Shown here piece after piece: positions 1,943 to 22,459 of a stretch of DNA of 32,000 bases (its first letter is position 1; each line of letters begins with the position of its first letter). Source of the DNA: Desulfobulbus propionicus DSM 2032 (GTDB taxonomy: Bacteria; Desulfobacterota; Desulfobulbia; Desulfobulbales; Desulfobulbaceae); assembly GCF_000186885.1 (NCBI RefSeq), contig NC_014972.1, positions 1,860,001 through 1,892,000 of the forward strand, in the 5' to 3' direction. The notes under the pieces were generated by a model. The model searched no databases. It had not been told where the DNA came from and saw only the letters and a program-made list of their open reading frames with translations. Position numbers and translations under genes: made by a program.

Positions 1943-1999
1943 ACCGTCAACGCGACGACCCCCTTTTTGATACGTCCACCAACTGAGGAGGAACAGGCT

Positions 2000-2596: not shown

Positions 2597-2612
2597 CCCC
2601 TCTGCGATCGCC

Positions 2613-3503: not shown

Positions 3504-3505
3504 CC

Positions 3506-4189: not shown

Positions 4190-4192
4190 GAG

Positions 4193-5050: not shown

Positions 5051-5080
5051 CCCCTTTGCCGACCGGCGGCGAAAGGCTGT

Positions 5081-5737
5081 TCACCGCGAGTGGATGCCGC
5101 TGTCTCCGAGACAGGTCTTCTGTCGGTCGGCAAGATTGCGCAGGTAGCGGTCCACCTTGGCCCGACCGATGCGGCCCAGCTCCTGCATCAGAGTGAAGGG
5201 AATTTCGTCGAGTCCGTAGCGATCGCACAGCACATCGGTCATGGCGATCCACACATGGCCGGTCATCTCGGCATCGGCCAGGGCGCGATGAAAGGTGCCG
5301 TCGGTGAAGATGCCCAGATGGTTGACCAGGGTGGCCAGCTTATGGTTGGGGGATTCGGGAAAGAGGCGGCGGGAGGCGAGCACGGTGCAAGCCATGGGGT
5401 TGGACTGGTGGCGGCCGATCAACGCCAGTTCGGCGTCAAGAAAGGCGCGGTCAAAGCCGGCGTTGTGAGCCACCAGGGGCAGATCGCCCATCCAGTCAGC
5501 GAACCGGTTCATCACCTCTTCACAGGGCGGGGCGTGGGCAATCAGGTCATTGCTGATGCCGGTGAGACGTTCGATGAACCAGCTGATGGTGAAACCGGGG
5601 TTCATCAACGCCTGAAAGCGGTCAACGATCCGGTCGTGCTCGATGCGCACCGCCCCCACCTCGATCGGCCGGTCGCCCCGGTTCGGCGAATGGCCGGTGG
5701 TTTCAAAATCAAGAACAATGACGGCAGGGGTGGACAT
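5081..5737 (-). CDS. DEDDh 3'-5' exonuclease (DNA polymerase III epsilon-like, stand-alone)
   Basis: Exo I VLDFETTG, Exo II LVAHNAGFDRAFL and Exo III HRALADAEMTG are all present in a 218-aa ORF. Confidence 0.85.
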   Translation of the reverse strand: MSTPAVIVLDFETTGHSPNRGDRPIEVGAVRIEHDRIVDRFQALMNPGFTISWFIERLTGISNDLIAHAPPCEEVMNRFADWMGDLPLVAHNAGFDRAFLDAELALIGRHQSNPMACTVLASRRLFPESPNHKLATLVNHLGIFTDGTFHRALADAEMTGHVWIAMTDVLCDRYGLDEIPFTLMQELGRIGRAKVDRYLRNLADRQKTCLGDSGIHSR

Positions 5738-5894
5738 AGACCAGCGGTGAGTGATTGTGGGCAGAGAACGACGAAGAAAGCCAAAAGCGTGCCTGAAGGT
5801 TGGCCTGGGTTCCTTCCCCTCGGCGCGGGGAGCCCAGGGACAGCGGGCGCACGACCGTTTCCTGTTTACGCCACCCGTCGGGGGAATGCAAGCA

Positions 5895-6500
5895 TCACCT
5901 GGTCAGCAGGCGGAGATTGATCGCCTCGACCCGCAGGCCGTGTGAACCGCGTCGCAGGAGATTGACCGCGCAATGGTCCTGGGGAAGCGCGAACAGGGTA
6001 CACAACGGCCGGTCCAGCAGACGGGAGAGAATCACCCGATTGACCCCGGCGTGGGCGACGACGAGCAGCGGACCGGGGTGCTCGTCGGCCAGCGCCCGCA
6101 AGGCCGGGAGGGCGCGGGCCGCCAGATCGGCGAAACTTTCACCGCCCGGAGGCCGGAAATGTTCCAGATCCTGGCCGCGCTGTTCATAGGCTCCGGGATA
6201 GCGGGCCTGGACCTCAGCCACGCTCAGGCCTTCCCAGTCGCCGAGATTGATTTCCGTCAATGCCGCCATCGATTGAATCTCGGCCAGCGGACGGTTGCCG
6301 GCCAGTGCGGCGGTGTGCAGCGCCCGTTGCAGGGGCGAGGAAAAGATATGGCTGAAGGTGAGCGCACGGAGCCGCTCGCCCACCATGCGCGCCTGGCGGA
6401 TGCCCTCTGCATTGAGCGGCAGGTCGGTCTGGCCCAGGAAGCGGCGCGGCGAGGATGTGTCGATCGCGCCGTGGCGAGCAAGAACGATCAGCGACTGCAC
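5895..6500 (-). CDS. Histidine phosphatase family protein (CobC / phosphoglycerate-mutase-like); last gene of the mop accessory module
   Basis: The GTG at 6500 gives VQSLIVLARHGAID (RHG motif), then SSPLQRALHTA and LVVAHAGVNR. This start overlaps the upstream gene stop (6488-6490) by 13 nt. The Arg/Gly-rich N-terminal extension of the 371-aa ORF is out-of-frame overlap with the upstream gene and is discarded. Confidence 0.8.
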   Translation of the reverse strand: MQSLIVLARHGAIDTSSPRRFLGQTDLPLNAEGIRQARMVGERLRALTFSHIFSSPLQRALHTAALAGNRPLAEIQSMAALTEINLGDWEGLSVAEVQARYPGAYEQRGQDLEHFRPPGGESFADLAARALPALRALADEHPGPLLVVAHAGVNRVILSRLLDRPLCTLFALPQDHCAVNLLRRGSHGLRVEAINLRLLTR

Positions 6501-7654
6501 GGTCGGCCGACGGTCTGCAGAATTTCGGCCACCGGCTGCCCGGCCTCGGCGGCGACGGCCTCGGCCAGGCCCACGGCCAGCTGGTAGCGCTCGCCGATGG
6601 CCCGCAATGCCTCGGCATCCTGCCCATAGAGGACCAGTTTTTCCTCGAAACGCTCGCTGAGATCGACCATCCGACTGCCGCGAACCAGCTTGTCGGCCAG
6701 ATGGACCAGTTCGCGTTCGCCGATGGCCCTCCCCGGCCGCCAATCCAGATCCTTGTGGGCGGCCACTATCTCCGCCGCCCGGGCAAAGCCCAGTTGCCGC
6801 AGCCAGCGCGCCCCTTCCTCCTCGTGTTCGGGATGCCCTTTGGCCAGGTCGTGCAGCAGGCCGCTGGCCCGGCACAAATCCGCGTCCAGCTGTTTGCCGC
6901 CGTGCCGGTTGACGGCGTTGCACAGGGCAACCGCCACCTCGGCCACCCGCTGGCCGTGGGCCAGCCCCTTGGCCGTCATGGGGTGGATGTGGTCGAGAAT
7001 GGCGGCACATTCGTCGCTGGCGGGGTATTCCTGGCGATGCAAGGCGTGGCGGGCGGCGAGATAGTCCTCCGGAGTATCCATGTCAAAATGGATGTGGGCA
7101 TCCGCCACCTGGACCTCCTGCACCATGGCCGGCCGCGCGGCCTCGACCTCTGCCAGGAGGGTGCGCAGGCCGCCCTCGGGTTGCCGCTCCCGCTTGATCA
7201 ACGGAATCAGTTCAGCGGCGAGCAGGGGCGGATGGCCGCGTCGGCCGGCAAACAGCGGGTAGAAGATGTGCCCGGAGTGCCGGACAAAGGCATCGGCCAG
7301 CCGTTTGATGGTGCCGCACCGCACCAGCGGAATGTCCACCGGCAGAAGGAAAAAGCCGCTTGTCCCGTCCCGAAGATCGTGCACCCCGGCGCGGATCGAG
7401 CTGTACATGCCGCTGGCGAAATTCGGATTGTGGGCCACCCGCGCGCCGACCCCTCGGGCCATGGCCCCTACCTCCTCGTGCCGATGACCGGTGACCACCA
7501 CCACCTCGTCAATACCGCACTGGCGGAACAGCTCCACGCACCGTTGCAGCACGGTTTGTTGCCCTTCCGTGGCCAGCGGCAGCAGGGCCTTGAGTTGCCC
7601 CATGCGCGAGGAAAACCCGGCCGCGAGGATCAGGGCGCTCAGGCGAGGTGCCAT
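6488..7654 (-). CDS. MobA/MocA-like NTP transferase fused to a C-terminal HD phosphohydrolase domain
   Basis: The N-terminal LILAAGFSSRMG...LLPVDIPLV is typical of molybdenum-cofactor nucleotidyltransferases. The C-terminal half carries GLLHDLAKGHPEHE and AAHKDLD (HD domain). The start overlaps the XdhC stop by 16 nt. Confidence 0.8.
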   Translation of the reverse strand: MAPRLSALILAAGFSSRMGQLKALLPLATEGQQTVLQRCVELFRQCGIDEVVVVTGHRHEEVGAMARGVGARVAHNPNFASGMYSSIRAGVHDLRDGTSGFFLLPVDIPLVRCGTIKRLADAFVRHSGHIFYPLFAGRRGHPPLLAAELIPLIKRERQPEGGLRTLLAEVEAARPAMVQEVQVADAHIHFDMDTPEDYLAARHALHRQEYPASDECAAILDHIHPMTAKGLAHGQRVAEVAVALCNAVNRHGGKQLDADLCRASGLLHDLAKGHPEHEEEGARWLRQLGFARAAEIVAAHKDLDWRPGRAIGERELVHLADKLVRGSRMVDLSERFEEKLVLYGQDAEALRAIGERYQLAVGLAEAVAAEAGQPVAEILQTVGRPCSR

Positions 7655-8688
7655 GCCTTGCGGCCGGTGGCCCGCTGATAGATCAGTTCGCCGACGACGG
7701 ACACCGCGATTTCTTCCGGGGTGTCCGCCTCGATGGCAAGGCCGATGGGGCAGCGCACCTGCTCCAGCTGGGCCTCGGTCACGCCCTTGTCCATCAGCCT
7801 GACATAGATGCTGTTGCGTTTCTTGCGGGAGCCGATCATGCCGATGTAGCCGGCCCCGGTCTGCAACGCCTGTTCGAGCACCTCCATGTCGTGCAGGTGG
7901 CCGCGGGTGACGATCACCAGATAGGCATCGCGATCAATATCCTCGCCCTGGAAGCAGCCGGCAAACGACGGCAGCACCCTGATCTCGTCGGCCGAGGGAA
8001 AACGCTCCTGGTTGGCGAATTCGCTCCGGTCATCCATGACCACCACCCGGAATCCGACCCGGGCCGCGGCCTCGGCGGTGCAGGCGGCCACGTGGCCGGC
8101 GCCGATCAGGTAGAGATTGCCGCCGACCGCGAACGAGGCGACCAGATAGCATTGCCCCGCCTGTTCCAGGACGGTGGCCGCCGAGGTGGAAGGCCGGAGC
8201 TGCTTGACGGCCGCGAGCAGGGCTTCGGAAACATCGGCGGCGGTTGTTCTGCCCTTGTGATCGACGACAAAGCGCTGTTCACCGTTGTGCGCTTCCAACG
8301 GGCTGACCAGAACGGCCCGGCGGCCCGATTCCATGGCCGCGAGCAGGTCGCCGAACACCGCCCGGTTGGACGCATCGGCCCGGATGCATTCCAAACAGAA
8401 TTCCATCCGTCCGCCGCAGATCATGTCGGTGACGGCGGCATCGCCGTTGGACAGATCAAAGGCATGGCAGCGGGAAACGCCGGTGGCAAAACAGTCTGCC
8501 GCTTCCCTGATGGCCGCAGCCTCGACCAGACCGCCGCCAATGGTGCCGGCGATGCGTCCGTCGCGAAAGACGATCATTTTCGCGCCCGCCACCCGGGGAG
8601 TGGACCCGGATTGGCTGCACACGGTGGCCAGAACAAGATCCTGACCGCTGTCCAAGGTGGTGCATATTTGCTGAATCAATTTTTTCAT
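7639..8688 (-). CDS. XdhC/CoxI-family molybdoenzyme maturation chaperone
   Basis: N-terminal XdhC_CoxI block VLATVCSQSGSTPRVAGAKMIV...GTIGGG and a C-terminal Rossmann-like block LYLIGAGHVAACTAEAAARVGFRVVVMDDR. ATGA overlap with the upstream ligase gene. Confidence 0.85.
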   Translation of the reverse strand: MKKLIQQICTTLDSGQDLVLATVCSQSGSTPRVAGAKMIVFRDGRIAGTIGGGLVEAAAIREAADCFATGVSRCHAFDLSNGDAAVTDMICGGRMEFCLECIRADASNRAVFGDLLAAMESGRRAVLVSPLEAHNGEQRFVVDHKGRTTAADVSEALLAAVKQLRPSTSAATVLEQAGQCYLVASFAVGGNLYLIGAGHVAACTAEAAARVGFRVVVMDDRSEFANQERFPSADEIRVLPSFAGCFQGEDIDRDAYLVIVTRGHLHDMEVLEQALQTGAGYIGMIGSRKKRNSIYVRLMDKGVTEAQLEQVRCPIGLAIEADTPEEIAVSVVGELIYQRATGRKAWHLA

Positions 8689-9995
8689 GGTGCTTGGTCC
8701 TTTCGCTGCTCATGGAGCACGCGTTTAGCGTAATGAATCAATGGTCCGGGAGCAAGGGTCAGCGCAACTTCCACCTCCCGGAGCGCCGGATATCTGGTCA
8801 GTTGGTCGGCGGCGGCACGACGCACCGCCTCGCCGTGGCCCGGCAGGGTGGTCAGGCACAGCCGCAGTTGTTCCCCGCCGTGATCGTCGGCGAGGGAGGC
8901 CGAGAAATCGAGCAGGCCGGGGAGGGCCAACAGCAGCTCGTCCAACTCGGGCAATGCCAGCTGGCCGCCGCCGCGCAGGGGGCGGACCTGGTTGAAACGT
9001 CCCGTCACTCTGTCGAGCCGCCGGATGACGCTGCCGCAGGGGCAGGAACCGGCGAGGAGGCGTCCCCGGTCGCCGGTGCGGTAGCGGATCAGCGGCATGC
9101 CGGTGCGGGTCAGGGTGGTGATCACGATCTCGCCCCACTGGCCCGCTGCCAGCGGAGCCGCGGTGCGGGGGTCGATGATCTCCACCAACAGATCGGATTC
9201 GCGCAGATGGCAGCCGCAATGGGCCGCGCAGTCCACTCCGCCGCCCAGTCCGGTCTCGACCGTGCCGTAATGGGAAAAGACCTCGCAGCCAAGCAGCTGC
9301 CGCAACCCGTGGCACACGCTGTCGGGAATGTAGTCGGAGCAGAGCAGCATCGAGCGGACCGGTGCCAGGTTCAGGCGTAGATGGGCGGCCATCCGCGCCA
9401 GGGCCAGCAGTTGCACCGGGAAACCGACCAGGACATCGGGCCGCAGTTCAGCAACCGCATGGGCGGCTGCCTGGGGATCGCTCACCAATCCGAGGAGATG
9501 GCTGTTGACCTGCATCCGCTCCAGGGCGCGGGCGAGCAGGTGGCCGGTGGAATCCGGGGTGGTGCCGGGGAGACAGATGGCCACCGTTTGCCCCGGATCG
9601 ACCATCTGTTCCATGCCCAGGTGAAAAAAGTCCAGGGTTCGCTCCAGATCCTCGGCGGTGAAATACAACCGCTTGGCCGCGCCGGTGGTGCCGGAGCTGT
9701 GCAGGGTGACGATCCTGGCCACGTCATCCAGACTGACGCACACCATCTCCGGGCCATGGGCACGCAGATCGGCCTCGGTGGTCAGCGGCAGGGCGTGCAG
9801 ATCCTCCAGGCCCCGCAGCCGATCGATACCGGCGGCGGTCAATGCGCGGCGGTAAAAGGCGGATCGATCACGGCAAGAGGCAACAAGCGAGCGCAGCCGT
9901 TCCGCCTGATAGCGGTCGATGGCGGCCCGCGACAACGGCCGGTTGGTTTCGCCAATGGCCTGGCCGATCAGCTTGTCCAGGGGGGTGGATTTCAT
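8685..9995 (-). CDS. PaaK-like adenylate-forming enzyme (phenylacetate-CoA ligase / F390 synthetase family)
   Basis: ATG 9995 overlaps the radical SAM stop (ATGA). Motifs are LHSSGTTGAAKRLYFT (AMP-binding core) and YRTGDRGRL. The size (436 aa) and N-terminal helical region resemble PaaK-type ligases rather than long acyl-CoA synthetases. Confidence 0.8.
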   Translation of the reverse strand: MKSTPLDKLIGQAIGETNRPLSRAAIDRYQAERLRSLVASCRDRSAFYRRALTAAGIDRLRGLEDLHALPLTTEADLRAHGPEMVCVSLDDVARIVTLHSSGTTGAAKRLYFTAEDLERTLDFFHLGMEQMVDPGQTVAICLPGTTPDSTGHLLARALERMQVNSHLLGLVSDPQAAAHAVAELRPDVLVGFPVQLLALARMAAHLRLNLAPVRSMLLCSDYIPDSVCHGLRQLLGCEVFSHYGTVETGLGGGVDCAAHCGCHLRESDLLVEIIDPRTAAPLAAGQWGEIVITTLTRTGMPLIRYRTGDRGRLLAGSCPCGSVIRRLDRVTGRFNQVRPLRGGGQLALPELDELLLALPGLLDFSASLADDHGGEQLRLCLTTLPGHGEAVRRAAADQLTRYPALREVEVALTLAPGPLIHYAKRVLHEQRKDQAP

Positions 9996-11401
9996 GGTTG
10001 CACCATGCCCCGATACAGGGGGCGCCCCTGCTGGGAGGTCAGGTTGTAGGCGCAAAAGGGGATGAGAAAACCCTGGGGCGATACCACGTGGATGCAGCAA
10101 CCGCGCAGCCGTTCGAGATCAAGATTCCACGCGTCCTGAAAGACCATGGCCGAAAGCGAAAAGGTATGGGTGCGGGCCCGGGCGAGGAAGCGGTCGAAAT
10201 CGTCCTGGGGCCGATCCGTGGCCGAGCAGGCGCAGGCGTCGGCTGGGGCCAGGGCAAGCGCGGGCAGGGACCACTGGCGGGCGGTGAAGCGGACGCTCTT
10301 TTCCCGTCCTTCCAGGGCGGTGGGAAGGGATGTCCTGGGCTCGCCGGTGGAACAGCAGGCTGCCTGCCCGCTGCCCAGAGGGGTCAGACGGCCATGCTCC
10401 TCGACCAGGAAGGTACCGTGGAAAGAGCACAGTGCATGTTCACAGGCCGGCGGGGCGAAATACTCGGCCAGCAGGGCTCCGTTGCTTTGCGCCTCGATCA
10501 GCTCGATCACTTCCGGCAGGGTCAGGCGCTCGGTGTCGGTGGGTGCCTGCGGATAACGGCCAAAATAGCTGATCGGTTGAAAATGCACCCCGCGCACCGT
10601 GGGCGCATGGCGGACGGCGTAGTCGATGATCGCCCCCACTTCGTGGGTATTGACCCCCGGAACCAGGGTCGGCACCAGCACCACCCCCAATCCGGCGGCA
10701 CCGCAGTGATGAATGGTCTGTTCCTTGATGGCGTGCAAATCGCGGCCGCGCAGGGTCTGGTGCGTGGAACGGCTCAGTCCGTCGAATTGGAGAAAGACCG
10801 AGGTTAGCCCGGCCTGTTTGAGGGAACGGGCGTAGTCCGGGTTTTCGGCCAGCCGCAGACCATTGGTGTTGAGCTGGATAAAGCCGAACCCCTTGTCCCG
10901 GCCCAGGGCGATGATGGCATCGAGATCGTCGCGCATGGTCGGCTCTCCGCCGGACAGCTGGATGTTGCAAGGGCCGGAGGCTTCGAGGATGCGGTCATAG
11001 AAGAATTCGATCCGCTCCAGGGAGGGATCGTCGTCCGCGCCGCTGGCGCCGGCGGCGGCGAAACAGACCGGGCAGCGCAGGTTGCACCGGGCGGTGATTT
11101 CGATCAGGGCGGTGCAGGTATGCTGCCCATGGTCCGGACAGAGGCCGCAGTCATGGGGGCAGCCGGCGGCAACGGCCGTTAAGGGCCGGCGGGGTGCGGA
11201 GGGTTTTTTCGGTCGCAGCCAGGTGGCAAACGGAACAGCACCCCGCCAAATCACCGTGCGGAAGGTGCCGTGATCCGGGCACTCCTTGACCAGGTAGACG
11301 GCGTCGCCCTGCTGTTCACGGATCGCCGCCACCCGTTTGAGACAGACCGGGCAGAGGCTGGCGGTCGACGACAGCAGTTCGATGGTGCGCTCAGCCCCCA
11401 T
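9992..11401 (-). CDS. Radical SAM protein with an N-terminal Cys4-type zinc ribbon
   Basis: N-terminal CPVCLKRVAAIREQQGDAVYLVKECPDHGTF, then the CX3CX2C cluster motif ITARCNLRCPVCFA, then a Cys-rich C-terminal extension. 469 aa. Overlaps both neighbouring genes. Confidence 0.85.
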   Translation of the reverse strand: MGAERTIELLSSTASLCPVCLKRVAAIREQQGDAVYLVKECPDHGTFRTVIWRGAVPFATWLRPKKPSAPRRPLTAVAAGCPHDCGLCPDHGQHTCTALIEITARCNLRCPVCFAAAGASGADDDPSLERIEFFYDRILEASGPCNIQLSGGEPTMRDDLDAIIALGRDKGFGFIQLNTNGLRLAENPDYARSLKQAGLTSVFLQFDGLSRSTHQTLRGRDLHAIKEQTIHHCGAAGLGVVLVPTLVPGVNTHEVGAIIDYAVRHAPTVRGVHFQPISYFGRYPQAPTDTERLTLPEVIELIEAQSNGALLAEYFAPPACEHALCSFHGTFLVEEHGRLTPLGSGQAACCSTGEPRTSLPTALEGREKSVRFTARQWSLPALALAPADACACSATDRPQDDFDRFLARARTHTFSLSAMVFQDAWNLDLERLRGCCIHVVSPQGFLIPFCAYNLTSQQGRPLYRGMVQP

Positions 11402-11846
11402 GGATCTGCTCCCGGGGCAGGCTGGGGTCGATGTTGTGCTCGGTCAGGAGGGCAAGCAGGGTTTCGCGGGCACGGATCATGATGTCGCCGCAGACTTCCG
11501 GCTTGCGTCCCCCCTGATAGGCGACGATGTCATCGCAGCGGATTCCTCCCCAGGCAGTGGCGCCTTGCTTGAACCAGTCCATGAACTGGGCGAGCATCAG
11601 GGGATAGCAGTCCAGGGGGTGTTCGGCAACGCTGCCCTTGGCCGTGTACAAGGCAATGATGCAGGCTGCGGCGCTGGCCACGCCGCACAGCTCGCCGCTG
11701 CCCGCGCCTTCGCACAATCCGGCCATGGCCCGAACCAGGGGAATGTTGTCCTCGCCCATGTCTTCGAGGGTGAGTTGGATCATGATCTGGCTGCAGCAGA
11801 ATCCCTGTCCAGCCAGTTGCATGATGCGCAGCGCGGTTTCATCCAT
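11391..11846 (-). CDS. C_GCAxxG_C_C family Cys-rich (putative redox-active) protein
   Basis: 151 aa with conserved Cys positions GFCCSQ, LCEGAGSGELCGVASAAAC (a variant of the GCAxxG core), IRCDD and EVCGD. Overlaps the methyltransferase stop by 8 nt and the radical SAM start by 11 nt. Confidence 0.75.
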   Translation of the reverse strand: MDETALRIMQLAGQGFCCSQIMIQLTLEDMGEDNIPLVRAMAGLCEGAGSGELCGVASAAACIIALYTAKGSVAEHPLDCYPLMLAQFMDWFKQGATAWGGIRCDDIVAYQGGRKPEVCGDIMIRARETLLALLTEHNIDPSLPREQIHGG

Positions 11847-12585
11847 GGAAGGCCCCCTTGTCGGCGATCAGCGCATAGTAGCCCAGCGGCGCCGTGGCCA
11901 GGGCGCAGGCCGTGGTGCGGGCGGCGGTCGTATCCATGAACAGCGACCAGAACTGTTCCAGGCTGCCGTGGGAAAAAATGATCTGTCCGGCCAGTTGCTT
12001 GAGCAGGTCACTGCGGTCGCGGAGCAGGGCGAGGGAAAATCCGGCCTGGTGCAAGCCGCTGGTGATCGTCTCCAGGGGCAGGGCCTGGGCGATGCAACTC
12101 TTCAGGGGCGGCAGCTGCGGCCGCTGGGAATGCTTGCAATAGATGTCGGTGAGGAGCAACGAGCCGCCCGGCCGCAGCACCCGATGCATTTCCTTGAGGC
12201 TGGCCTGCGGGTTGTCGGTCAGCGACAGCGCGCATTCGCAGAGCACGGCGTCGAAGGCGGCATCCGCGCAGGGAAGGGCAGCGGCTGTTCCCTGGTGGAG
12301 GGTCGCGGCGGGCGCCCGGAGGGCGGCCTTGTCGAGCATGAAGGCCGAGGGGTCAAGACCGCTGGCATCCAGGGCGAATTCGTCCGCCATCAGCGCCAGG
12401 CTGTGCCCGGGACCACAGCCGATATCGAGCACCCGAGCACCCGGAGGCAGACGGCAGAAACCGAGCAGTTCCCTGGTCAGCTCCAGGCCCCCCGGCCGCA
12501 GGGTGCCGCCGGTCAGGGCGGACAACGGTTCCTGTTCGTACAGGGGAACAGAGGGGGAGGCCGGGCAGGAACGGATCGCGTTCAT
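11839..12585 (-). CDS. Class I SAM-dependent methyltransferase
   Basis: ATG 12585 lies 1 nt after the upstream stop (12587-12589). Motif I is ARVLDIGCGPGHS, with downstream FDAVLCECAL and LRPGGSLLLTD. The longer 305-aa ORF start would overlap the upstream gene. Confidence 0.8.
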   Translation of the reverse strand: MNAIRSCPASPSVPLYEQEPLSALTGGTLRPGGLELTRELLGFCRLPPGARVLDIGCGPGHSLALMADEFALDASGLDPSAFMLDKAALRAPAATLHQGTAAALPCADAAFDAVLCECALSLTDNPQASLKEMHRVLRPGGSLLLTDIYCKHSQRPQLPPLKSCIAQALPLETITSGLHQAGFSLALLRDRSDLLKQLAGQIIFSHGSLEQFWSLFMDTTAARTTACALATAPLGYYALIADKGAFHG

Positions 12586-12586
12586 C

Positions 12587-12796
12587 TCATTTGTCCTCCA
12601 GCAGTTGTTCGACTTCCAGCATCTTGCCCATGGCCAGGCTTTCCGGCACGAGAACGAAGCCGCATTGCGGGCAGGCCATGAGTTCGACATTGAACACGGA
12701 ATGGAGATAACGGACATTGACCTTGGCCGGCTGCAGCGGTTGATGGCACGCCGCACACTGCCAATCCGTGGCCTCGATAAAGGAAAAGGTGCTCAT
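12587..12796 (-). CDS. Small 4-Cys zinc-ribbon protein (69 aa)
   Basis: MSTFSFIEATDWQCAACHQ...MACPQCGF has two CxxC pairs. ATG 12796 overlaps the upstream stop (ATGA). Its position and coupling argue that it is translated. No family assignment is possible without an HMM search. Confidence 0.6.
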   Translation of the reverse strand: MSTFSFIEATDWQCAACHQPLQPAKVNVRYLHSVFNVELMACPQCGFVLVPESLAMGKMLEVEQLLEDK

Positions 12797-15099
12797 GGGG
12801 TCTCCTGGGGCAGGTGCATGCGGTGGCTGTAGCCGTTGTGCAGGATGTAGCCCGCCGCGGTCGGCTCGTATTCGATCCAATAGGTCACCCGTACCGGCTT
12901 GAGGCAGGCCAGGCGATGCTGGTTGGCCGGGTTGATCAGGTACCTGCCCGTGGCCTCGGCGTGATGAATCACCTTCCGCGCTTCGTCCTCAAGGATGTGG
13001 CGGCTGTTGAGCCGATCCATCACCTCCGGGCTGACCAGCAGGGAAAGGGCGGTGTGCTCGGGCCGGGAGGCGGCGGTTTCTCCCCACAGGTCGGTCAGCA
13101 ACTGCTCCTTCAGCCGGACTCGGTTCTCGTGCCGCAGGGAAAAGCCGGGATTGGCCCGGCCCAGGGGATCGCTGCCGTCGGACGCGGCAAAGAGATAGTC
13201 AAGCAGGTGGGCCACCGGCCGCCCGGCAGCGGCCAGATTGTCGCGGCACATGGCGCAATAGGCCAGGCCGCACTGTTCGCTCCGCTCCGCCTTGACCAGG
13301 GCGGCCTTGCGGCCGAGCTGCTGGTCGGCGAACTGCATCAGGCCGCCATAGCCGCAGCAGTCGGCCAGTTCGCCGTTGTAGGCGTGCTCGACAATCGGGA
13401 GGCCGAGCTTGGCGCAAAGGCTGCGCACGCTGGCGCGCATCGCCTGCTGCCGCCGGGCGGTGCAGGGATCGTGCAGGGCCAGCGGTGCGGTCGGCGTGGC
13501 GGGAAGGTCGGTCGGCAGTTCCAGGCCGTCGAGCACCTCCCACAGAGAAATGGTTTCGATGTCCGCGGTAAATTCCTTGAACACGGACAGACAACTGGAA
13601 CAGGCGACGATCACCCTCGGCCGTCCCAATCGTTCGATCTCGGTCTTGAAGTGGTGCAGGGTCTGCTGGAACACTTGCCGCTGTCCGGCCCAATGGGCCG
13701 GGATGCCGCAGCAGTCGAGCATCAGGCCGACGCCGCCTTCCAGGAGCGAGGCCAGCAGGTCGTAGGTTTTTTTGACCGTCTCGGGGGCTGATCCGGCCAG
13801 CTGGCAGCCGGGATAGAAGAGATGGCGGCTGGCGTTGGTTCCCGGCTGGTGACGACTGAGGCGGCAATACTCGCTTTGGCTGAAACGCATGTCTTCCAGG
13901 GCGAAATCATGCGGCGACGGCGGCATGTGATTGCTGTCGACCATGTCCTGCCGGGCGGCGCGGCACACTTCGGCCACGGGAAAATCGTTGGGACAGATCA
14001 CCGTGCACTGGCCGCAGAGGCTGCAGGCATTGATCATCCGGTTGGCGTTGCGGGTGCCCTGGACAATGGCCTGATTGTTGTACATCTTGCGCACCAGGGT
14101 CTTGGGATATTCGTTGTACTGCCGCAGATAGACGCACTGTTTGACGCATTCCATGCACTCGCAGCGGATGCAGCGGCTGGCCTCGGCCCGCGCCTCGGCA
14201 GCCGTGTAGCCGCTGTCCGGGTTGGCCGGAACGATTGCGGCCAGCGACGCATGACCGGTGGTGACGGTCACCATGCGGGTGGTGCAGCTGCCTTCCTTGT
14301 CGCGCTGGGCGGTGAGCGAAACCTTCTGCAGGAAGCGTTCGATCGACAACGCGGCCCGGCGGCCGTTTTCAACCTGCTGGATAACCGAAAAAGGATTGCC
14401 GGCCTCGGTGCCGCCGCCGGCAAAACAGCCGTCGCGGCCAAGGGCGAGGGTCAGGGGATCGGGGACACCCTGCGGCAAGGGAAGCAGGGCCGGGTCAACA
14501 TCGTCCCAATCGAAATACACCGCGTCGGCGTGGCCGATCAGGGCCTCGATGGCCTGCGGATCAAGGGAAGTTGCGGTGCGCAGCACAACGCCGTATCCGG
14601 CAAGGGTGGCTGCGGCTTGGGCAAGCGCATCGTTTGGCAGTGTCGATTCGGGCAGACGGCAGAGGCTGCCGCCAAGCGTGGCGCTGCCGGTGATCAGGGT
14701 GGTCGCCCGTCCCTTTCGCATGAGGTCGAGGGCGGCGGTCATACCCGAGAGGCCAGCGCCAATGATGGTCACCGCACCCTGTTTGGCGGGAAGTTTCGGC
14801 AGTTTGACCATGGTCTGGGTGGTGCTGACACAGTATTGTTCCAGCCTGCCGATGGCGAGCGGATCGCCGATTTCGCCGCGTTTGCAGAAAGGCCGGCAGG
14901 GCTGATCGCAGAGGCGGCCGACGATTTCCGGAAACGGCATGGTCCGGTCGAGGATTTTGCGGGCGTCGCGCACGTTGCCGTTGGCCAGGCAGGCCATGAA
15001 GGCGCGGACATCGACGTGAATGGGACAGGCGGCCGTGCAGAATGGCTGTTCTTCCTGGATGCAACGGGATTCGAGTTCTCTGAGCTGCGGTTGATCCAT
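12793..15099 (-). CDS. Multidomain oxidoreductase fusion: FeS N-terminal region, FAD/NAD(P)-binding domain, 2x[4Fe-4S] ferredoxin domain, two CCG (HdrD/GlpC-like) domains and an uncharacterised C-terminal domain
   Basis: 768 aa. The N-terminal FCTAACPIHVDV...CDQPCRPFC resembles the GltD/DPD-type FeS region. Dinucleotide fold VTIIGAGLSGMTAALDL. Ferredoxin motifs CIRCECMECVKQC and CSLCGQCTVICP. CCG-type motifs YPGCQLAGS...MLDCCGIP and LHDPCTARR...LADCCGYGG. Confidence 0.8.
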   Translation of the reverse strand: MDQPQLRELESRCIQEEQPFCTAACPIHVDVRAFMACLANGNVRDARKILDRTMPFPEIVGRLCDQPCRPFCKRGEIGDPLAIGRLEQYCVSTTQTMVKLPKLPAKQGAVTIIGAGLSGMTAALDLMRKGRATTLITGSATLGGSLCRLPESTLPNDALAQAAATLAGYGVVLRTATSLDPQAIEALIGHADAVYFDWDDVDPALLPLPQGVPDPLTLALGRDGCFAGGGTEAGNPFSVIQQVENGRRAALSIERFLQKVSLTAQRDKEGSCTTRMVTVTTGHASLAAIVPANPDSGYTAAEARAEASRCIRCECMECVKQCVYLRQYNEYPKTLVRKMYNNQAIVQGTRNANRMINACSLCGQCTVICPNDFPVAEVCRAARQDMVDSNHMPPSPHDFALEDMRFSQSEYCRLSRHQPGTNASRHLFYPGCQLAGSAPETVKKTYDLLASLLEGGVGLMLDCCGIPAHWAGQRQVFQQTLHHFKTEIERLGRPRVIVACSSCLSVFKEFTADIETISLWEVLDGLELPTDLPATPTAPLALHDPCTARRQQAMRASVRSLCAKLGLPIVEHAYNGELADCCGYGGLMQFADQQLGRKAALVKAERSEQCGLAYCAMCRDNLAAAGRPVAHLLDYLFAASDGSDPLGRANPGFSLRHENRVRLKEQLLTDLWGETAASRPEHTALSLLVSPEVMDRLNSRHILEDEARKVIHHAEATGRYLINPANQHRLACLKPVRVTYWIEYEPTAAGYILHNGYSHRMHLPQETP

Positions 15100-15135
15100 G
15101 GCAAAAGGGGAGCGTCTGGAGTGATGAACCGGAAA

Positions 15136-15169
15136 GGGGAGGCAGGAGGTACATTTCCCGACCTCCCCC
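15136..15169 (-). promoter_or_regulatory. Intercistronic GC hairpin between mop and the accessory module (possible attenuator or processing site)
   Basis: GGAGGT (15145-15150) pairs with ACCTCC (15161-15166) across a 10-nt loop. An alternative pairing is GGGGAGG (15136-15142) with CCTCCCC (15162-15168). There is no U-tract, so this is not a canonical terminator. Confidence 0.3.
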
Positions 15170-15200
15170 TATTTAACCAGCTAACGGATGAGACAACACC

Positions 15201-17918
15201 TTATTTGGGCATGGCGGCCAGCACCTTCTCCGGCAGGGCCGGGAGGTGACGGATGCGTGCGCCGCAGGCGTTGTAGATACCGTTGATCACCGCGGCGTGC
15301 GGCGCGGTCAACGGCATCTCGCCCACGCCGGAAGCGCCAAAGGGGCCGTCCGGGCGCGGGGTTTCCACATAGAGGATCTCCATGTTGTCCGGGATCTGCT
15401 TGATGTACGGGAAACCGGCTCCGGCAAGCGTCGAGTGCTTCTTGATGTCCTCGAAGTCCTCGGTCAGCGCCAAACCGATACCCTGGGCCAGACCGCCGTA
15501 AATCTGGCCGTCGACCACCAGCTTGTTGACCACCTTGCCGACATCGGCCACGCAGACCATGCTTTCCACCGTGGTCTTGCCGGTGGCTTTTTCCACGGCC
15601 ACCTCGGCCATGAACAGACCATACATGTAGCAGCAAAACGGCTTGCCCTGACCGTTGGCGTCGCAGTCATTGGCCGGTGCCGTCCATTTGCCGCGCACCT
15701 TGGTCGGAAGACCTTCGGCCACCATCTCCTCATAGGTCCGGTAGCTGCCGTTGGCCTTTTTCATCGACTTGATCAGATCCTCGCAGGCCACCCGGATCGA
15801 CTGGCCGACCACCACCTGACTGCGGCTGCCGCCGGCAGGACCGGAGTTGGGGCACTTGCTGGTGTCGTTCATTACCAGCTTGATCTGGTTGACGGAAAGC
15901 GCCAGTGGCCGCAGGGCCTCGTGGGCGGTGGCCAGGGTTCCCATGTCCGCGCCTTGGCCATGATCCTCCCAGGCGTTGTAGACGGTCACCGTGCCGTCGG
16001 GATGCAGCTCGACATCGGTTTCGGCGGTGTCGGGGCCATCCAGACCGGCACCGTAGATGCCGATGGCCACGCCGACGCCTTTCTTGACGGCATCGGTGGA
16101 TTCCGCCGCCACCCGTTTCTTGGCCGCCTCATATTTGGGCCGCAGCTTGTCGATCATCTCCGGCAGTGAATACACTTCCGGGTCCTGGCCGGTGGGGGTG
16201 GTCGCTCCTTGGCGGTAGACGTTCTTATAGCGCAGTTCGAGCGGGTCCATGCCCAGTTTCTCGGCCAGTTCGTCCATCAACACCTCGGAGGGGAACTCGG
16301 CCTCGGGTGCGCCGTAGCCACGGAAGGCGGCGCCCCAGGCATGGTTGGTGCATACGGTGCGGCCTTCGCCACGGATGTTGGCGATATCGTATCCGGCACC
16401 GATGTACTGGGCGCCACGCAGGGTCAGCAGGTCACCGAACTCGGAGTAGGGACCGTGATCCACCGACCAGTCGGTTTCCATGCCCAGCAGTTTGCCGTCC
16501 TTGCTCGCCGCGTACCGCACCGTGGTCCAGAAGGGCGAACGCTTGCCGGTGTAGATCTGCTGCTGCGCATAATCGTAACACAGGTAGACCGGGCGGTTGG
16601 TGGCCATGGCGGCCGCACCCACCAGGGCTTCCATGGTCGGGCTGAATTTGTAGCCAAAGGTGCCGCCGGTGTTGTTCTGGATCAGAACCAGGTTCTCCGG
16701 TTCCACGCCCAAACCGGGGGCAATCATGTACAGGTGGAGATGGATGCCGATGGACTTGGAGTGGATGACCAGCTTGCCGTTGTCGTCATGGTAGGCATAA
16801 CCGACATCCGGTTCGATCGGCAGATGGGGTTGACGGCTGGTGTAGTAATCGCCCTCGACCACCACGTCGGCCTTGTCGAAGACGGGCTTGGTGTCCTCGC
16901 CCTTGGCGATCTTCTGGATGTAGTAGATGTTGGGGGTACCGGGATGGATCTCGATCGCATCCGGTTCCATGGCCGCCGGCGCGCTCATGTAGGCGGGCAG
17001 TTCTTCCAGCTCGACCTTGACTTTCTTGGCCGCGGCCTTGGCGTTCTTCTCGGTGTCGGCGCAGACAATGGCCAGGGCGTCGCCATACTGGAACACCTTG
17101 GTGTCGCACAGGATCGGGCGATCCCAGCCATCCCCCTTGTTGGTGGGGAAGGTGATCAAACCGGTGATCCGGTTCTTGCCCTTGATGTCCTTGTGGGTGA
17201 CCACCTTGAACACGCCGGGCATCTTCTCGGCCTCGGAGGTGTCGATGGAGAGAATGTTGGCATGCGAAACCTCGGCCTGAACCAAGGCCAGGTGGAGGGT
17301 GTTTTCCGGAAGCTGGAGGGCGGAGTCCGCACCGAAATCCCAGGTGCCGGTCACCTTGGCGGCAGCGCTGGGGCGCGGCATGCTGGTGCCCAGGACCTTG
17401 CCGTCCGCGGGTATCTTGTAGGCCAGATCCTGCATGCTGATCTCGCCTTTGAGCACCCGCACCGCGTCACGGACCGCGTCGACCAGCATCTTGTAGCCGG
17501 TGCAGCGGCAGGCGTTTTTATATTTCTGGAACCATTCGCGAATTTCTTCGCGGGACGGATCGGGATTGGCATCGATCAGGGCCTTGGCCGAAACGATGAA
17601 GCCCGGGGTACAAAAACCGCACTGGGCGCCGCCGTGCACCATCCAGGCCATTTGCAGGGCATGGAGATCCTGGGGGGTGCCGATACCCTCGATGGTGGTA
17701 ATGGCCGCGCCGTCGGGAACGCGTTCCATCTTGGTGATGCAGGAGCGGATCAGTTTGCCGTCCATGATCACATTACAGGCGCCGCACTGTCCCTTGCCGC
17801 AACCGACCTTGGTGCCGGTGAGGCGCAGGTTCTTGCGGATAACGTCGGACAGCAGGTCAGCACCCTCGGTGACCACCGACCGCTCGATCCCGTTGACGTA
17901 CAATGTTTTTTTCTGCAT
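15201..17918 (-). CDS. mop: Mop-type molybdenum aldehyde oxidoreductase (2x[2Fe-2S] plus molybdopterin domains, no FAD domain)
   Basis: ATG 17918 is preceded by GGGAG. 905 aa. The N-terminus MQKKTLYVNGIE...CGKGQCGACNV...GAQCGFCTPGF...ACRCTGY closely parallels my recollection of Desulfovibrio gigas MOP. It also has the Mo-domain GGTFGYK and the active-site region GASGVGEMPL. Confidence 0.92.
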   Translation of the reverse strand: MQKKTLYVNGIERSVVTEGADLLSDVIRKNLRLTGTKVGCGKGQCGACNVIMDGKLIRSCITKMERVPDGAAITTIEGIGTPQDLHALQMAWMVHGGAQCGFCTPGFIVSAKALIDANPDPSREEIREWFQKYKNACRCTGYKMLVDAVRDAVRVLKGEISMQDLAYKIPADGKVLGTSMPRPSAAAKVTGTWDFGADSALQLPENTLHLALVQAEVSHANILSIDTSEAEKMPGVFKVVTHKDIKGKNRITGLITFPTNKGDGWDRPILCDTKVFQYGDALAIVCADTEKNAKAAAKKVKVELEELPAYMSAPAAMEPDAIEIHPGTPNIYYIQKIAKGEDTKPVFDKADVVVEGDYYTSRQPHLPIEPDVGYAYHDDNGKLVIHSKSIGIHLHLYMIAPGLGVEPENLVLIQNNTGGTFGYKFSPTMEALVGAAAMATNRPVYLCYDYAQQQIYTGKRSPFWTTVRYAASKDGKLLGMETDWSVDHGPYSEFGDLLTLRGAQYIGAGYDIANIRGEGRTVCTNHAWGAAFRGYGAPEAEFPSEVLMDELAEKLGMDPLELRYKNVYRQGATTPTGQDPEVYSLPEMIDKLRPKYEAAKKRVAAESTDAVKKGVGVAIGIYGAGLDGPDTAETDVELHPDGTVTVYNAWEDHGQGADMGTLATAHEALRPLALSVNQIKLVMNDTSKCPNSGPAGGSRSQVVVGQSIRVACEDLIKSMKKANGSYRTYEEMVAEGLPTKVRGKWTAPANDCDANGQGKPFCCYMYGLFMAEVAVEKATGKTTVESMVCVADVGKVVNKLVVDGQIYGGLAQGIGLALTEDFEDIKKHSTLAGAGFPYIKQIPDNMEILYVETPRPDGPFGASGVGEMPLTAPHAAVINGIYNACGARIRHLPALPEKVLAAMPK

Positions 17919-18111
17919 GAGGTACTCCCATGAAAGTTTGAGATAAATCAACGCGGCCTTGCCGCATGGTGTGAAATCAGGCCGAATGACGACCCCGCGG
18001 AAGGGGGGCCCGGCAGAGCCGTCCAATTCAGCCCGACAAACGGATACACGACACGCAACCAGACAGCCTGGGCCGCGTACCCCGCTTGCATTCTTGCCGT
18101 TTTGCGGATCA

Positions 18112-18340: not shown

Positions 18341-19522
18341 TTACAGCGCGGCGGTGTAGATCGCCTTGACGTCGGCGTCTTTCGGGCAGCGCGGGTTGGT
18401 CAGACCGCAGGCATCCTTCTGGGCATTGGCCACCATGGTGTCGATGTCGGAGGCCTTGACTTCCTTGCCATACTTCTTGCCCAGCTCGATCAGGCCAGCC
18501 GGGATGCCGATGTCGGCGGACAGCTTGCGGATAGCCACCAGGGCCAGCTCGGCGGCGTCGCGCGGGGCCAGACCAGCGGTGTTCTCGCCCATCAGCTCGG
18601 CGATCTTGACAAAGCGGTCCATCTTGGCGATTAGGTTGAACTTCTCCACATGGGGCAGGAGAATGGCGTTGCACTCGCCGTGCGGCAAGTCATAGAAACC
18701 GCCCAGCTGATGGGCCATGGCATGGACGTGACCCAGGCTGGCGTTGTTGAAGGCCATGCCGGCCAGATACTGGGCAAAACACATGCCTTCGCGGGCTTCG
18801 ATGTCCTGGCCATTGGCCACGGCCGGACGCAGGTACTTGGCGATCAGCTCGATGGCCTTCTCGGCGGCGGAGTCGGTCATCGGGGTGGCGATGGTGGACA
18901 CATAGGCCTCGACCGCGTGGGTGAGGGCGTCCATGCCGGTGGCGGCGGTCAGTGCCGGCGGCATGCCAACCATGAGCATCGGATCGTCGACGGCGATGCC
19001 GGGGGTGACGCGCCAGTCAACGATGGCCATCTTCACGTGACGGGAGGTGTCGGTGATGATGCAGAAGCGGGTCATCTCCGAGGCGGTGCCGGCGGTGGTG
19101 TTGACCGCCAGGTAGGGGGGCATGGGCTTGGAGGATTTGTCCACGCCCTCGTAGTCATGGATCTTGCCGCCGTTGGCGACCACCAGGCCAACGCCCTTGC
19201 CGCAGTCATGGGAAGAACCGCCGCCGAGGGTGATCAGGGAGTCGCAGTTCTCTTTCTTGTAGATGTCGACGCCGTCATGCACGTTCTTGTCGGTGGGATT
19301 GGGGATCGTTTCGTCATAGACCACGTAGGCCATGCCCGCGGCTTCCAGCAGGTCGGTGATCTGTTTGGTGATGCCGGCACCGGTGATGCCCTTGTCGGTG
19401 ACGATCAACGGCTTGGAACCGCCGAGGGCCTTGATTTTGTCCGGGATCTGCTTGGCGGCGCCAATGCCGATCAGGGTTACAGAGGGAATGAAATAACCGT
19501 AGACTTGTTCACGAACTGCCAT
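18341..19522 (-). CDS. Iron-containing (group III) alcohol dehydrogenase
   Basis: ATG 19522 is preceded by AAGGATGG. 393 aa with GGGSSHDCGKG, ALTHAVEAY and HVHAMAHQLGG (Fe-ADH metal and NAD motifs). The 37 codons upstream in the ORF track lack an SD and overlap the promoter. Confidence 0.92.
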   Translation of the reverse strand: MAVREQVYGYFIPSVTLIGIGAAKQIPDKIKALGGSKPLIVTDKGITGAGITKQITDLLEAAGMAYVVYDETIPNPTDKNVHDGVDIYKKENCDSLITLGGGSSHDCGKGVGLVVANGGKIHDYEGVDKSSKPMPPYLAVNTTAGTASEMTRFCIITDTSRHVKMAIVDWRVTPGIAVDDPMLMVGMPPALTAATGMDALTHAVEAYVSTIATPMTDSAAEKAIELIAKYLRPAVANGQDIEAREGMCFAQYLAGMAFNNASLGHVHAMAHQLGGFYDLPHGECNAILLPHVEKFNLIAKMDRFVKIAELMGENTAGLAPRDAAELALVAIRKLSADIGIPAGLIELGKKYGKEVKASDIDTMVANAQKDACGLTNPRCPKDADVKAIYTAAL

Positions 19523-19617
19523 AATGAAACCATCCTTTTGTAGTGTTAGGGTTCCTCTCGTCCTACCTAAAATTCCTGCCTCTCTTTGGTACCAATGAAA
19601 CGCGTACCCTTCTAAAG

Positions 19618-19632
19618 GCAAAGGGTGTGCCA
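19618..19632 (-). promoter_or_regulatory. Sigma-54 (RpoN) -24/-12 promoter for adh
   Basis: The minus strand reads TGGCAC-ACCCT-TTGC, an exact match to the TGGCAC-N5-TTGC consensus. The -12 element lies about 95 nt upstream of the adh ATG. Confidence 0.7.
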
Positions 19633-19649
19633 TGATAAAAATATATTAT

Positions 19650-22333: not shown

Positions 22334-22459
22334 AACAAAGGCGCACCTATCTGCAGCCGGCGAGAATGACCCGCAGACAGGTCTCAAGATATCCCCGTGT
22401 CACAGGGGACACTTCCATCACACGATTTTTGGCCGCGCAGGCGGTCAGGGAGGCAATTC

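Follow-up and report, generated by a model that had tools for sequence, protein, structure and literature searches.

The Mop-type aldehyde oxidoreductase (AOR) has served as a structural model of molybdenum enzymes for about 30 years, and six to seven conserved genes adjoining its gene have no known function. Its closest described counterparts are the DVU_1551-DVU_1559 neighbourhood of Desulfovibrio vulgaris Hildenborough and, for cofactor insertion, the pair of an XdhC/PaoD chaperone and the nucleotidyltransferase MocA. This pair serves the xanthine dehydrogenase (XDH) of Rhodobacter capsulatus and PaoABC of Escherichia coli. We analyzed a 32,000-nt stretch of the Desulfobulbus propionicus DSM 2032 genome (NC_014972.1, positions 1,860,001 to 1,892,000; hereafter the window), in which the aldehyde oxidoreductase gene mop is followed on the minus strand by nine further genes, g1 to g9. 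To our knowledge, the XdhC/PaoD and MocA systems need none of g1 to g6. All nine family models of the D. vulgaris neighbourhood were matched by proteins of the window, and NCBIfam already models the neighbourhood (NF045645, NF045646, NF045663-NF045669) of which this locus is one orthologous example. We tentatively read it as a layered three-part operon and not as a single pathway: Mop with its electron-transfer partner, a cofactor-insertion block (g7-g9), and a mobile cassette around the radical S-adenosylmethionine (SAM) enzyme TrsS (g2-g6). This layered architecture has somewhat less than an even chance of being right, and the chemistry proposed for the layers is graded lower.

Families were called with NCBIfam profiles against their curated cut-offs and with a Pfam domain search (scores are given as bits against cut-off). 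Nine of the ten proteins exceeded the cut-offs, g9 alone falling just short. Mop (15201..17918, minus strand as all genes of the operon; 905 aa) belongs to the Mop-type AOR family NF045668, scoring 1710 against 1100 and covering model positions 2-904 of 905. It is a single subunit with two [2Fe-2S] clusters, a hammerhead domain and two molybdenum cofactor (Moco)-binding domains (Pfam Fer2, Fer2_2, Ald_Xan_dh_C, MoCoBD_1 and MoCoBD_2) and has no flavin adenine dinucleotide (FAD) domain; it matched 1DGJ (Desulfovibrio desulfuricans MOD) with 1557 bits and the Desulfovibrio gigas MOP structures 1SIJ/1VLB with 1458 bits. The gene g1 (12793..15099) encodes a 768-aa FAD/iron-sulfur (FeS)/CCG oxidoreductase (NF045663, pyridine nucleotide-disulfide oxidoreductase/dicluster-binding protein; 1001 against 530), and g2 (12587..12796) encodes a 69-aa DVU_1557 family redox protein (NF045645, 106 against 60; DUF7479), a rubredoxin-like 4-Cys ribbon with CxxC and CPxCG knuckles followed by a C-terminal helix. 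The 248-aa product of g3 (11839..12585) is a class I SAM methyltransferase (NF045667, DVU_1556, 235 against 155; Methyltransf_11 and Methyltransf_25), and that of g4 (11391..11846; 151 aa) is a C-GCAxxG-C-C protein (NF045669, DVU_1555, 150.6 against 103; PF09719) with four invariant cysteines, C18, C54, C104 and C119. A solved relative of g4 was sought and none was found. We considered g4 as a thiocarboxylate carrier, which its Gly-Gly end had suggested, and rejected this as the C-terminus is not conserved. TrsS (g5; 9992..11401; 469 aa) scored 684 against 490 with NF045646. The 436-aa protein g6 (8685..9995) is a PaaK-like adenylate-forming ligase (NF045666, DVU_1553, 449 against 300) with a complete adenylation set including the C-terminal lysine (SGTxGxxKR, YRTGD, CxCG and a C-terminal KR). 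It matched PaaK structures with 118 bits and the PaaK equivalog TIGR02155 with only 124 bits against 646, and from these motifs and scores g6 is predicted to work like an adenylating enzyme and not to be PaaK itself. The remaining genes encode an XdhC-family Moco chaperone/insertion factor (g7; 7639..8688; 349 aa; NF045664, 423 against 350), a fusion of a nucleoside triphosphate (NTP) transferase with an HD domain (g8; 6488..7654; 388 aa; NF045665, DVU_1551, 435 against 315) and a CobC-like histidine phosphatase (g9; 5895..6500; 201 aa; His_Phos_1), which with 155 against 162.9 did not reach the TIGR03162 cut-off. An earlier note on this DNA, made from the sequence alone, had assigned these families and domains and given five of the DVU names. 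The assignments were all reproduced with Pfam and NCBIfam, and the names DVU_1551, 1553, 1555, 1556 and 1557 proved to be those of real models (NF045665, NF045666, NF045669, NF045667 and NF045645), each exceeded here.

The ten open reading frames (ORFs) run head to tail and in frame on the minus strand between 5895 and 17918. Given the starts used, ATGA overlaps occur at 12793-12796, 9992-9995 and 8685-8688, a 1-nt gap separates g2 and g3 at 12586, and the other junctions are overlaps of 8 nt (11839-11846), 11 nt (11391-11401), 16 nt (7639-7654) and 13 nt (6488-6500). Longer ORFs from alternative upstream starts are possible for g2, g3, g6, g9 and mop. The starts used were preferred because they match the coverage of the family models and the tight spacing in close relatives; the start codon of g9 is GTG. 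The compact same-strand series that the earlier note had described was thus exact in coordinates, frame and every junction. It had also proposed translational coupling throughout, and this holds for g1 to g9 only, since a 101-nt structured spacer (15100..15200) lies between mop and g1. The spacer contains a GC-rich stem-loop (GGGGGAGG...CCUCCCC) and folded with -34.9 kcal/mol, a modest signal with z = -1.08 relative to dinucleotide-preserving shuffles and -2.7 relative to mononucleotide shuffles. Related loci have longer gaps between mop and g1 (median ~135 nt) than within g1-g6 (medians 20-35 nt). Of 52 such spacers compared with mononucleotide shuffles, 48 were structured (z < -2), and the median z was -4.2. 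The spacer may be a leaky terminator, an attenuator or an mRNA-stabilising stem-loop, and such a conserved stem-loop may hold the level of Mop above that of the accessory proteins. A scan for promoters and terminators gave no more hits than shuffled sequence.

We scanned one genome per species for relatives of TrsS, obtained at least 521 stretches and kept the best 80 loci (individual loci are given as L numbers). Presence of the other genes was scored by tblastn with the window proteins in the 58 loci with full flanks (at least 7 kb upstream and at least 5 kb downstream of TrsS). In this set mop was present in 88% of the loci, g1 in 90%, g2 in 97%, g3 in 91%, g4 in 95%, g6 in 97%, g7 in 79%, g8 in 72% and g9 in 69%. 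All ten genes in the order of the window and on one strand were observed in 25 of the 58 loci, from several phyla and including Desulfobulbales, Desulfovibrionaceae, Desulfosarcina, Desulfotomaculum, Clostridium tyrobutyricum, Acetobacterium, Lacrimispora and Sulfurospirillum. This recurrence of the arrangement is far beyond chance, and the frequency of mop bears out the co-conservation with Mop on which the earlier note had staked its proposal beforehand. The nearest homologues of the window TrsS are in Desulfobulbus and other Desulfobulbales (72-77% identity). The same gene order in Desulfovibrio, which the earlier note had stated, was seen in Nitratidesulfovibrio termitidis (L086), a congener of D. 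vulgaris Hildenborough, and in a Desulfovibrio locus (L087) with a Mop 88% identical to the crystallised 1DGJ and without an adjacent XdhC gene; the locus-tag numbers 1551 to 1557 in the family names run in this order as well. The window differs from the Desulfovibrionaceae in that g1 and g2 are separate here and fused in N. termitidis, and in that no MoCF_biosynth gene lies upstream here. In L086 (8821-9864) and L087 (8883-9923) a MoCF_biosynth protein of ~340 aa is encoded directly upstream of mop, and in L066 (6218-7240) such a gene stands next to cassette genes. In certain lineages the MoCF_biosynth protein may belong to the module as an additional member.

The presence/absence matrix divided the module into blocks. 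Genes mop and g1 were gained and lost together, g2-g6 formed the most constant block, and g7-g9 formed a separable block that was missing in the Anaerolineae loci. Gene fusions occurred within and between these blocks: g8 with g9 in L016 (5618-7390), L021 (13620-15506) and L031 (8909-10807), g1 with g2 in L043 (6191-8818) and L086 (12839-15577), g8 with TrsS in L061 (8651-11407) and TrsS with g6 in L078 (9962-12661). The fusions that were inspected at the sequence level each form one uninterrupted ORF in which the linker is short and runs of N are absent, and the fusion in L086 was a single called gene with both domain sets.

The ties between g1 and g2 reach beyond these two loci. A search of 1.84 billion representative proteins gave 185 relatives of g2, and nearly all those listed align to the last residue. 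The long relatives that we fetched were all g1-g2 fusions, except for one repetitive spurious match (P0270), and many proteins of 137-181 aa consist of the C-terminal domain of g1 (~90 aa, motifs VTYWxEY and YSHRM, no match in a Pfam search) joined to the g2 ribbon. About 75 g2 orthologues share an LEDK C-terminus. AlphaFold2 modelled g2 as a zinc ribbon that ends in a helix (predicted local distance difference test score 74), and this model has generic structural neighbours only. We also considered g2 as a LysW-like carrier and rejected this; relaxed Pfam searches gave generic zinc ribbons, and the model matched MqsA/ZifS ribbons with E > 0.04. Judging from its sequence relatives, g2 appears to be in effect a detachable small subunit of g1, and the recurrent fusion means that g1 and g2 read better as the electron-transfer partner of Mop.

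The make-up of g1 fits this role. It begins with a GltD/NfnB-like part (two [4Fe-4S] clusters and an FAD fold), residues 6-209 matching NfnA/GltD-like PDB entries, and continues with an HdrD-like 4Fe-4S dicluster and CCG part; its Pfam matches are Fer4_20, Fer4_17 and CCG. Pfam detected one CCG domain besides the dicluster, and the conserved sequence shows a further CC(G) motif. The N-terminal type and the dicluster and CCG part resemble those of NfnB/GltD, HdrD/HdrBC and BamDE. The GltD-like match ends at about residue 200, so that an NAD(P)H domain is perhaps absent. Like BamD, g1 stands beside a low-potential pterin enzyme, and reviews and a cryo-EM preprint describe the BamD site that corresponds to the HdrD-type CCG as something other than a heterodisulfide site. 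Unlike the Hdr and Bam modules, g1 unites all its parts in a single chain of 768 aa, to which an additional C-terminal domain and the g2 ribbon belong. In Clostridium ljungdahlii two tandem sets of Mop, FAD/CCG, 4-Cys and C_GCAxxG_C_C proteins occur, and the first of these is induced on syngas or H2/CO2 (Aklujkar et al., PMC5640608). As judged with Pfam, Mop lacks the FAD domain of xanthine dehydrogenases, and the D. gigas literature describes a search for the 'missing' flavo-domain of Mop (PMC10223205). From the absence of this domain, the g1-g2 fusions, the flavin and FeS make-up of g1 and the tandem sets of C. ljungdahlii, we infer that g1 and g2 are the electron outlet of Mop. In this first layer, Mop would oxidise aldehydes at its molybdenum-molybdopterin cytosine dinucleotide (MCD) site, and its two [2Fe-2S] clusters would pass the electrons to g1. 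The FeS-FAD and HdrD-like parts of g1 would provide Mop with a flavin and an exit module, neither of which it has itself, and the g2 ribbon would be a detachable C-terminal subunit.

The second layer resembles the XdhC/PaoD and MocA pair. The XdhC_CoxI and XdhC_C domains of g7 and the MobA/MocA-type domain of g8 correspond to those of the two proteins. With the generic model TIGR02964, g7 scored 143.5 against 161.6. The earlier note had given g7 and g8 the XdhC and MocA roles in making and inserting the cofactor. The XdhC family held for g7, while g8 scored only 140.7 against 186.45 with the MocA model TIGR03310, and it also differs from MocA by its additional HD domain (Pfam NTP_transf_3 and HD, with the H/HD/H/D metal-binding residues retained) and by its phosphatase partner g9, with which it is fused in three loci. 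The phosphatase in turn is not assigned to CobC, with a score below the cut-off and a context of a Mop module without cob genes. We propose that XdhC would hold and insert the cofactor, and that g8 and g9 would handle the nucleotide step.

The cassette g2-g6 is not confined to Mop. In TrsS loci without Mop, it adjoined other pyranopterin enzymes, sometimes together with g8 and g9. Enzymes of the aldehyde ferredoxin oxidoreductase (AFOR) family resembling BamB were neighbours in seven loci (L055, L067, L081, L082, L083, L084 and L085), and formate dehydrogenase (FDH)-like members of the dimethyl sulfoxide (DMSO) reductase family in two (L055 and L058). The AFOR enzyme of L082 matched BamB of class II benzoyl-CoA reductase (PDB 4Z3W) with 977 bits (E = 4e-293), and those of the other six loci were 54-86% identical to it. 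Loci L081-L085 were drawn from a third protein search, seeded with the TrsS of L058, which revealed a large TrsS clade in Geobacter, Desulfuromonadaceae, Syntrophorhabdaceae and Sterolibacterium. In L082 the AFOR enzyme is accompanied by a Fer4 protein, an 80-aa protein, the methyltransferase, the C_GCAxxG_C_C protein, TrsS and the ligase. L083 has TrsS and the ligase followed by a BamBCDEF-like set, L084 has g2-g6 followed by a BamB-like enzyme, a BamC-like protein and two MoeA genes, and L081 carries g8- and g9-like genes in addition to the cassette and a BamB-type enzyme. L055 (Thermincola) has, next to the cassette, one enzyme of the AFOR family and one FDH/PhsA-like enzyme of the DMSO reductase family. 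In L058 (4295-16235) an XdhB-like FAD subunit and a [2Fe-2S]-DMSO-reductase-family fusion come first, the cassette follows, and after it come MoeA, a MOSC-domain protein and an ArsS radical SAM (seleno)protein. MoeA, MOSC or MoCF_biosynth genes were often near the cassette. XdhC was not found in the BamB-type loci, and g7 is specific to Mop among these contexts. The only feature common to all contexts of the cassette is a molybdenum or tungsten pyranopterin enzyme working near -450 to -620 mV. The hybrid enzyme of L058 joins an XdhC/PucE-type [2Fe-2S] N-terminus to a DMSO-reductase-family catalytic domain. In L081 (Desulfuromonadaceae) an HdrABC/FlpD-like set lies beside the cassette and the BamB-like gene (1-9418, 16765-18105), together with two radical SAM/SPASM genes, of which one is a candidate member of the tungsten-cofactor oxidoreductase maturases TIGR04317.

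These neighbours bear on the idea that the module works at the level of substrates, with the aldehyde being oxidised, the acid activated by g6 (for example to an aryl-CoA for BamB), and TrsS and the methyltransferase acting on the substrate. We consider this very unlikely. The PaaK-like nature of g6, the aldehyde dehydrogenase genes in L067, L081 and L085, the link of both Mop and BamB to aromatic acid and aldehyde chemistry and an iron-dependent alcohol dehydrogenase gene upstream in the window would all fit. However, the cassette is found in Desulfovibrio, Clostridium, Acetobacterium and Sulfurospirillum, which are not known to degrade aromatics, g6 always accompanies TrsS and is sometimes fused to it, the MoeA, MOSC and XdhC neighbours suggest cofactor biology, and L055 and L058 pair the cassette with FDH-like enzymes, which do not belong to the aldehyde enzymes.

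The ArsS gene of L058 is one of several hints at arsenic or selenium, and the cassette might in principle handle metalloids or organometallic compounds by means of an ArsM-like methyltransferase, a radical SAM enzyme and Cys/Sec-rich binding proteins, shielding or servicing arsenite-sensitive pterin enzymes. The D. gigas AOR is inhibited by arsenite (PMC10223205), selenoprotein forms exist for TrsS (PMC13188914) and for the wider C-GCAxxG-C-C family, and beyond its own family the best NCBIfam matches of g3 were ArsM-type, at ~60 bits. On the other hand, the closest solved structures to g3 were phosphoethanolamine N-methyltransferases (57 bits), and ArsM structures gave only 43 bits over residues 101-184. 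With 60.6 bits against the cut-off of 263 for the ArsM model NF008823, the candidate assignment of g3 as ArsM was rejected. Genes for ars functions or transporters are not conserved in the loci either, and metalloid handling is thus extremely improbable.

The central enzyme of the cassette, TrsS, is a member of its own family, with an N-terminal Zn/Fe ribbon, a CxxxCxxC motif (CNLRCPVC) and N- and C-terminal parts like those of Tes. The name reportedly comes from Haft and Tolstoy in 2025. Tes itself was formerly annotated as a pterin dimethyltransferase (HMPTM), and the HMPTM zinc-ribbon Pfam domain was found in TrsS. Against the structure of GDGT-MAS/Tes (7TOL), TrsS gave 310 bits, aligned only over residues 11-318 and 405-458, which comprise the ribbon, the radical SAM core and the C-terminal CCIH...PFC region. 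With the Tes model NF045702 it gave 361 bits against 450 over residues 13-336 only, and TrsS is therefore not assigned to Tes. It differs from Tes in that the central region is replaced by an insert (residues 319-404) and in occurring in bacterial hosts next to pterin enzymes and not to lipid genes. The insert, which had no match in a Pfam search, carries C320, C325 and C349/C350. In L034 an in-frame TGA (10925-10927) aligns with C320 of the window (FRPPG-U-ENALCSFHG), giving a common motif PPxC/UExxLCSFH of which the window TrsS is the cysteine form. The listing of TrsS among selenoproteins (PMC13188914) agrees with this codon. The selenocysteine (Sec) at the C320 position suggests that, as far as the alignment goes, this residue may be a reactive thiol or selenol and not a cluster ligand. 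In L062 (9992-12169) a lone TrsS continues at its C-terminus into a Cys-rich ribbon and then a DUF5714 domain, the GTCGACVGAG motif of which resembles the C-GCAxxG signature. DUF5714 as a relative of g4 was rejected, with a BLAST comparison against g4 that was not significant. A cysteine-desulfurase-like gene lies close to the TrsS cassette of Sporomusa.

With TrsS so placed, the cassette could be imagined to make or mature a redox carrier, with TrsS, the methyltransferase and the ligase placing a prosthetic group or a cross-link on g4 or the LEDK tail of g2 and the resulting carrier shuttling electrons to or from low-potential pterin enzymes. The logic would be like that of lipoyl or diphthamide biosynthesis, given the ligase, the radical SAM enzyme, the methyltransferase, the 4-Cys donor and the flavoprotein reductase, and TrsS is related to Tes, which we understand to couple unactivated sp3 carbons. 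The LEDK tail stands at the extreme C-terminus in the ~75 orthologues and 185 representatives, the four cysteines of g4 are invariant, the L062 protein joins TrsS to a Cys-rich ribbon and DUF5714, and the tandem duplication of C. ljungdahlii keeps Mop, g1, g2 and g4 together. We nevertheless consider a carrier unlikely. In L016, g3 and TrsS occur with fused g8 and g9, and none of g2, g4 and g6 is nearby, the fusion in L061 links TrsS to the nucleotidyltransferase, the cluster contains no protease or obvious release step, the model of g2 is a generic zinc ribbon unlike LysW and other carrier proteins, and the similarity between DUF5714 and g4 was not significant.

The main idea of the earlier note was that the nine genes form one self-contained pathway tailoring MCD for Mop. 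The close packing of the genes, XdhC and a MocA-like gene among them, in one operon, the co-occurrence with Mop in 88% of the loci and the fusion of g8 with TrsS agree with it. On the other hand, the Mop enzymes of D. gigas and D. desulfuricans (1VLB and 1DGJ), to which the window Mop is closely related (1458-1557 bits) and whose close relatives carry the module, reportedly contain ordinary MCD in their high-resolution structures. Moreover, the core of the module also occurs with BamB-type enzymes, in which the tungsten-bis-metallopterin has no dinucleotide and carries an aqua ligand, and g1 and g2 act as an enzyme partner and not as biosynthetic proteins. With g1 tracking mop and g2-g6 occurring with BamB-type and FDH-like enzymes too, a Mop-specific pathway fails, and we regard tailoring of MCD by all nine genes as very unlikely. 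What stands of the earlier proposal is the arrangement, the families and the co-conservation with Mop; its reading as one cofactor-tailoring module has to be revised.

Instead, we favour a third layer in which g2-g6 would be a mobile accessory set for very-low-potential molybdenum and tungsten pyranopterin enzymes in general, the electron outlet (g1, g2) and the insertion block (g7-g9) being the other two. While gene content, synteny, co-variation, the fusions and the Sec/Cys pair are shown by the comparison, the catalytic roles in this layer, as in the first, we infer. The cassette would carry out a transient radical-SAM-dependent step that makes, inserts or repairs the metal-pyranopterin site, with TrsS being reduced through g2, and with intermediates bound to Cys or Sec thiols and adenylated for activation. 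We favour such a transient part in biogenesis or repair because of the shared pyranopterin context and the fusions of TrsS with the nucleotidyltransferase and the ligase. By analogy of working only, the toolkit, with enzymes of the radical SAM, SAM methyltransferase, adenylate-forming and nucleotidyltransferase kinds next to small Cys and 4-Cys proteins and a flavoprotein reductase, may be likened to those for the iron-guanylylpyridinol (FeGP) cofactor (HcgA-G) and for diphthamide (Dph1-7). It is a possible, if rather doubtful, extension that the cassette is a general maturation or electron-supply system for very-low-potential enzymes of three families that are not related to each other, those of xanthine oxidase (Mop), AFOR (BamB) and DMSO reductase (FDH-like enzymes), with new radical chemistry on the pyranopterin or on a protein-bound carrier, for which the LEDK tail of g2 and the g4 cysteines would be candidates.

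Several observations weigh against the three-layer reading. E. coli and others mature MCD enzymes with an XdhC-type chaperone (PaoD) and MocA only, and the third layer is therefore not generally required. The ordinary MCD reported for the Mop structures is a further point, and crystal and cryo-EM structures of BamB likewise show standard cofactors only. The product would therefore be transient or located elsewhere, and stable tailoring of the MCD cofactor is unlikely. In L081, g8 and g9 accompany a BamB-type enzyme; the cofactor of BamB lacks a dinucleotide, which makes it doubtful that g8 acts simply as a MocA. The aldehyde dehydrogenase genes in three cassette loci hint at a substrate-level aldehyde theme, and most of the fusions come from metagenome-assembled genomes. 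According to recent reviews and a cryo-EM preprint, BamB holds an aqua-tungsten-bis-metallopterin with standard cofactors only. An idea that TrsS builds an odd sixth ligand on the tungsten of BamB was rejected, as the current literature assigns this ligand as water. The acceptor of D. gigas Mop in vitro is flavodoxin (PMC10223205). Finally, a search of the accessible literature revealed no experimental function for g1-g6 or the DVU1551-1559 neighbourhood, as the earlier note had also stated, and no functional study linking the Desulfovibrio AOR/XdhC or BamB with radical SAM enzymes.

The occurrence of the cassette beside BamB-type and FDH-like enzymes points to an unrecognised biogenesis, repair or electron-supply step in strict anaerobes. 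The question is directly testable in the genetically tractable Desulfovibrio and Geobacter, and it bears on heterologous expression of enzymes for acid-to-aldehyde reduction in syngas fermentation and for Birch-type ring reduction.

The module is bordered in the window by genes of other kinds. An iron-dependent alcohol dehydrogenase gene (18341..19633, minus strand; Pfam Fe-ADH and ADH_Fe_C) lies ~420 nt upstream of mop. Of the 80 loci, seven have a homologue. It directly precedes mop in L004, lies upstream in L021 and elsewhere in L028, L038, L048 and L072, and is a weak match of 35% in L057. This placement suggests a route from alcohol via aldehyde to acid. On the other side, a DnaQ/RNase T-type exonuclease gene (5081-5737, minus strand) follows 157 nt past g9 on the same strand; it was present in none of the 80 related loci and is therefore placed outside the module. 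Between 19000 and 23000, just upstream of the alcohol dehydrogenase gene, the G+C content falls from ~0.65 to 0.53-0.58. The right half of the window holds unrelated genes, among them those for a cytidylate-kinase-like protein (20973-21809), a thioredoxin-reductase-like flavoprotein (22397-23389), an arylsulfotransferase (23744-25627), a major facilitator superfamily transporter and a histidine kinase.

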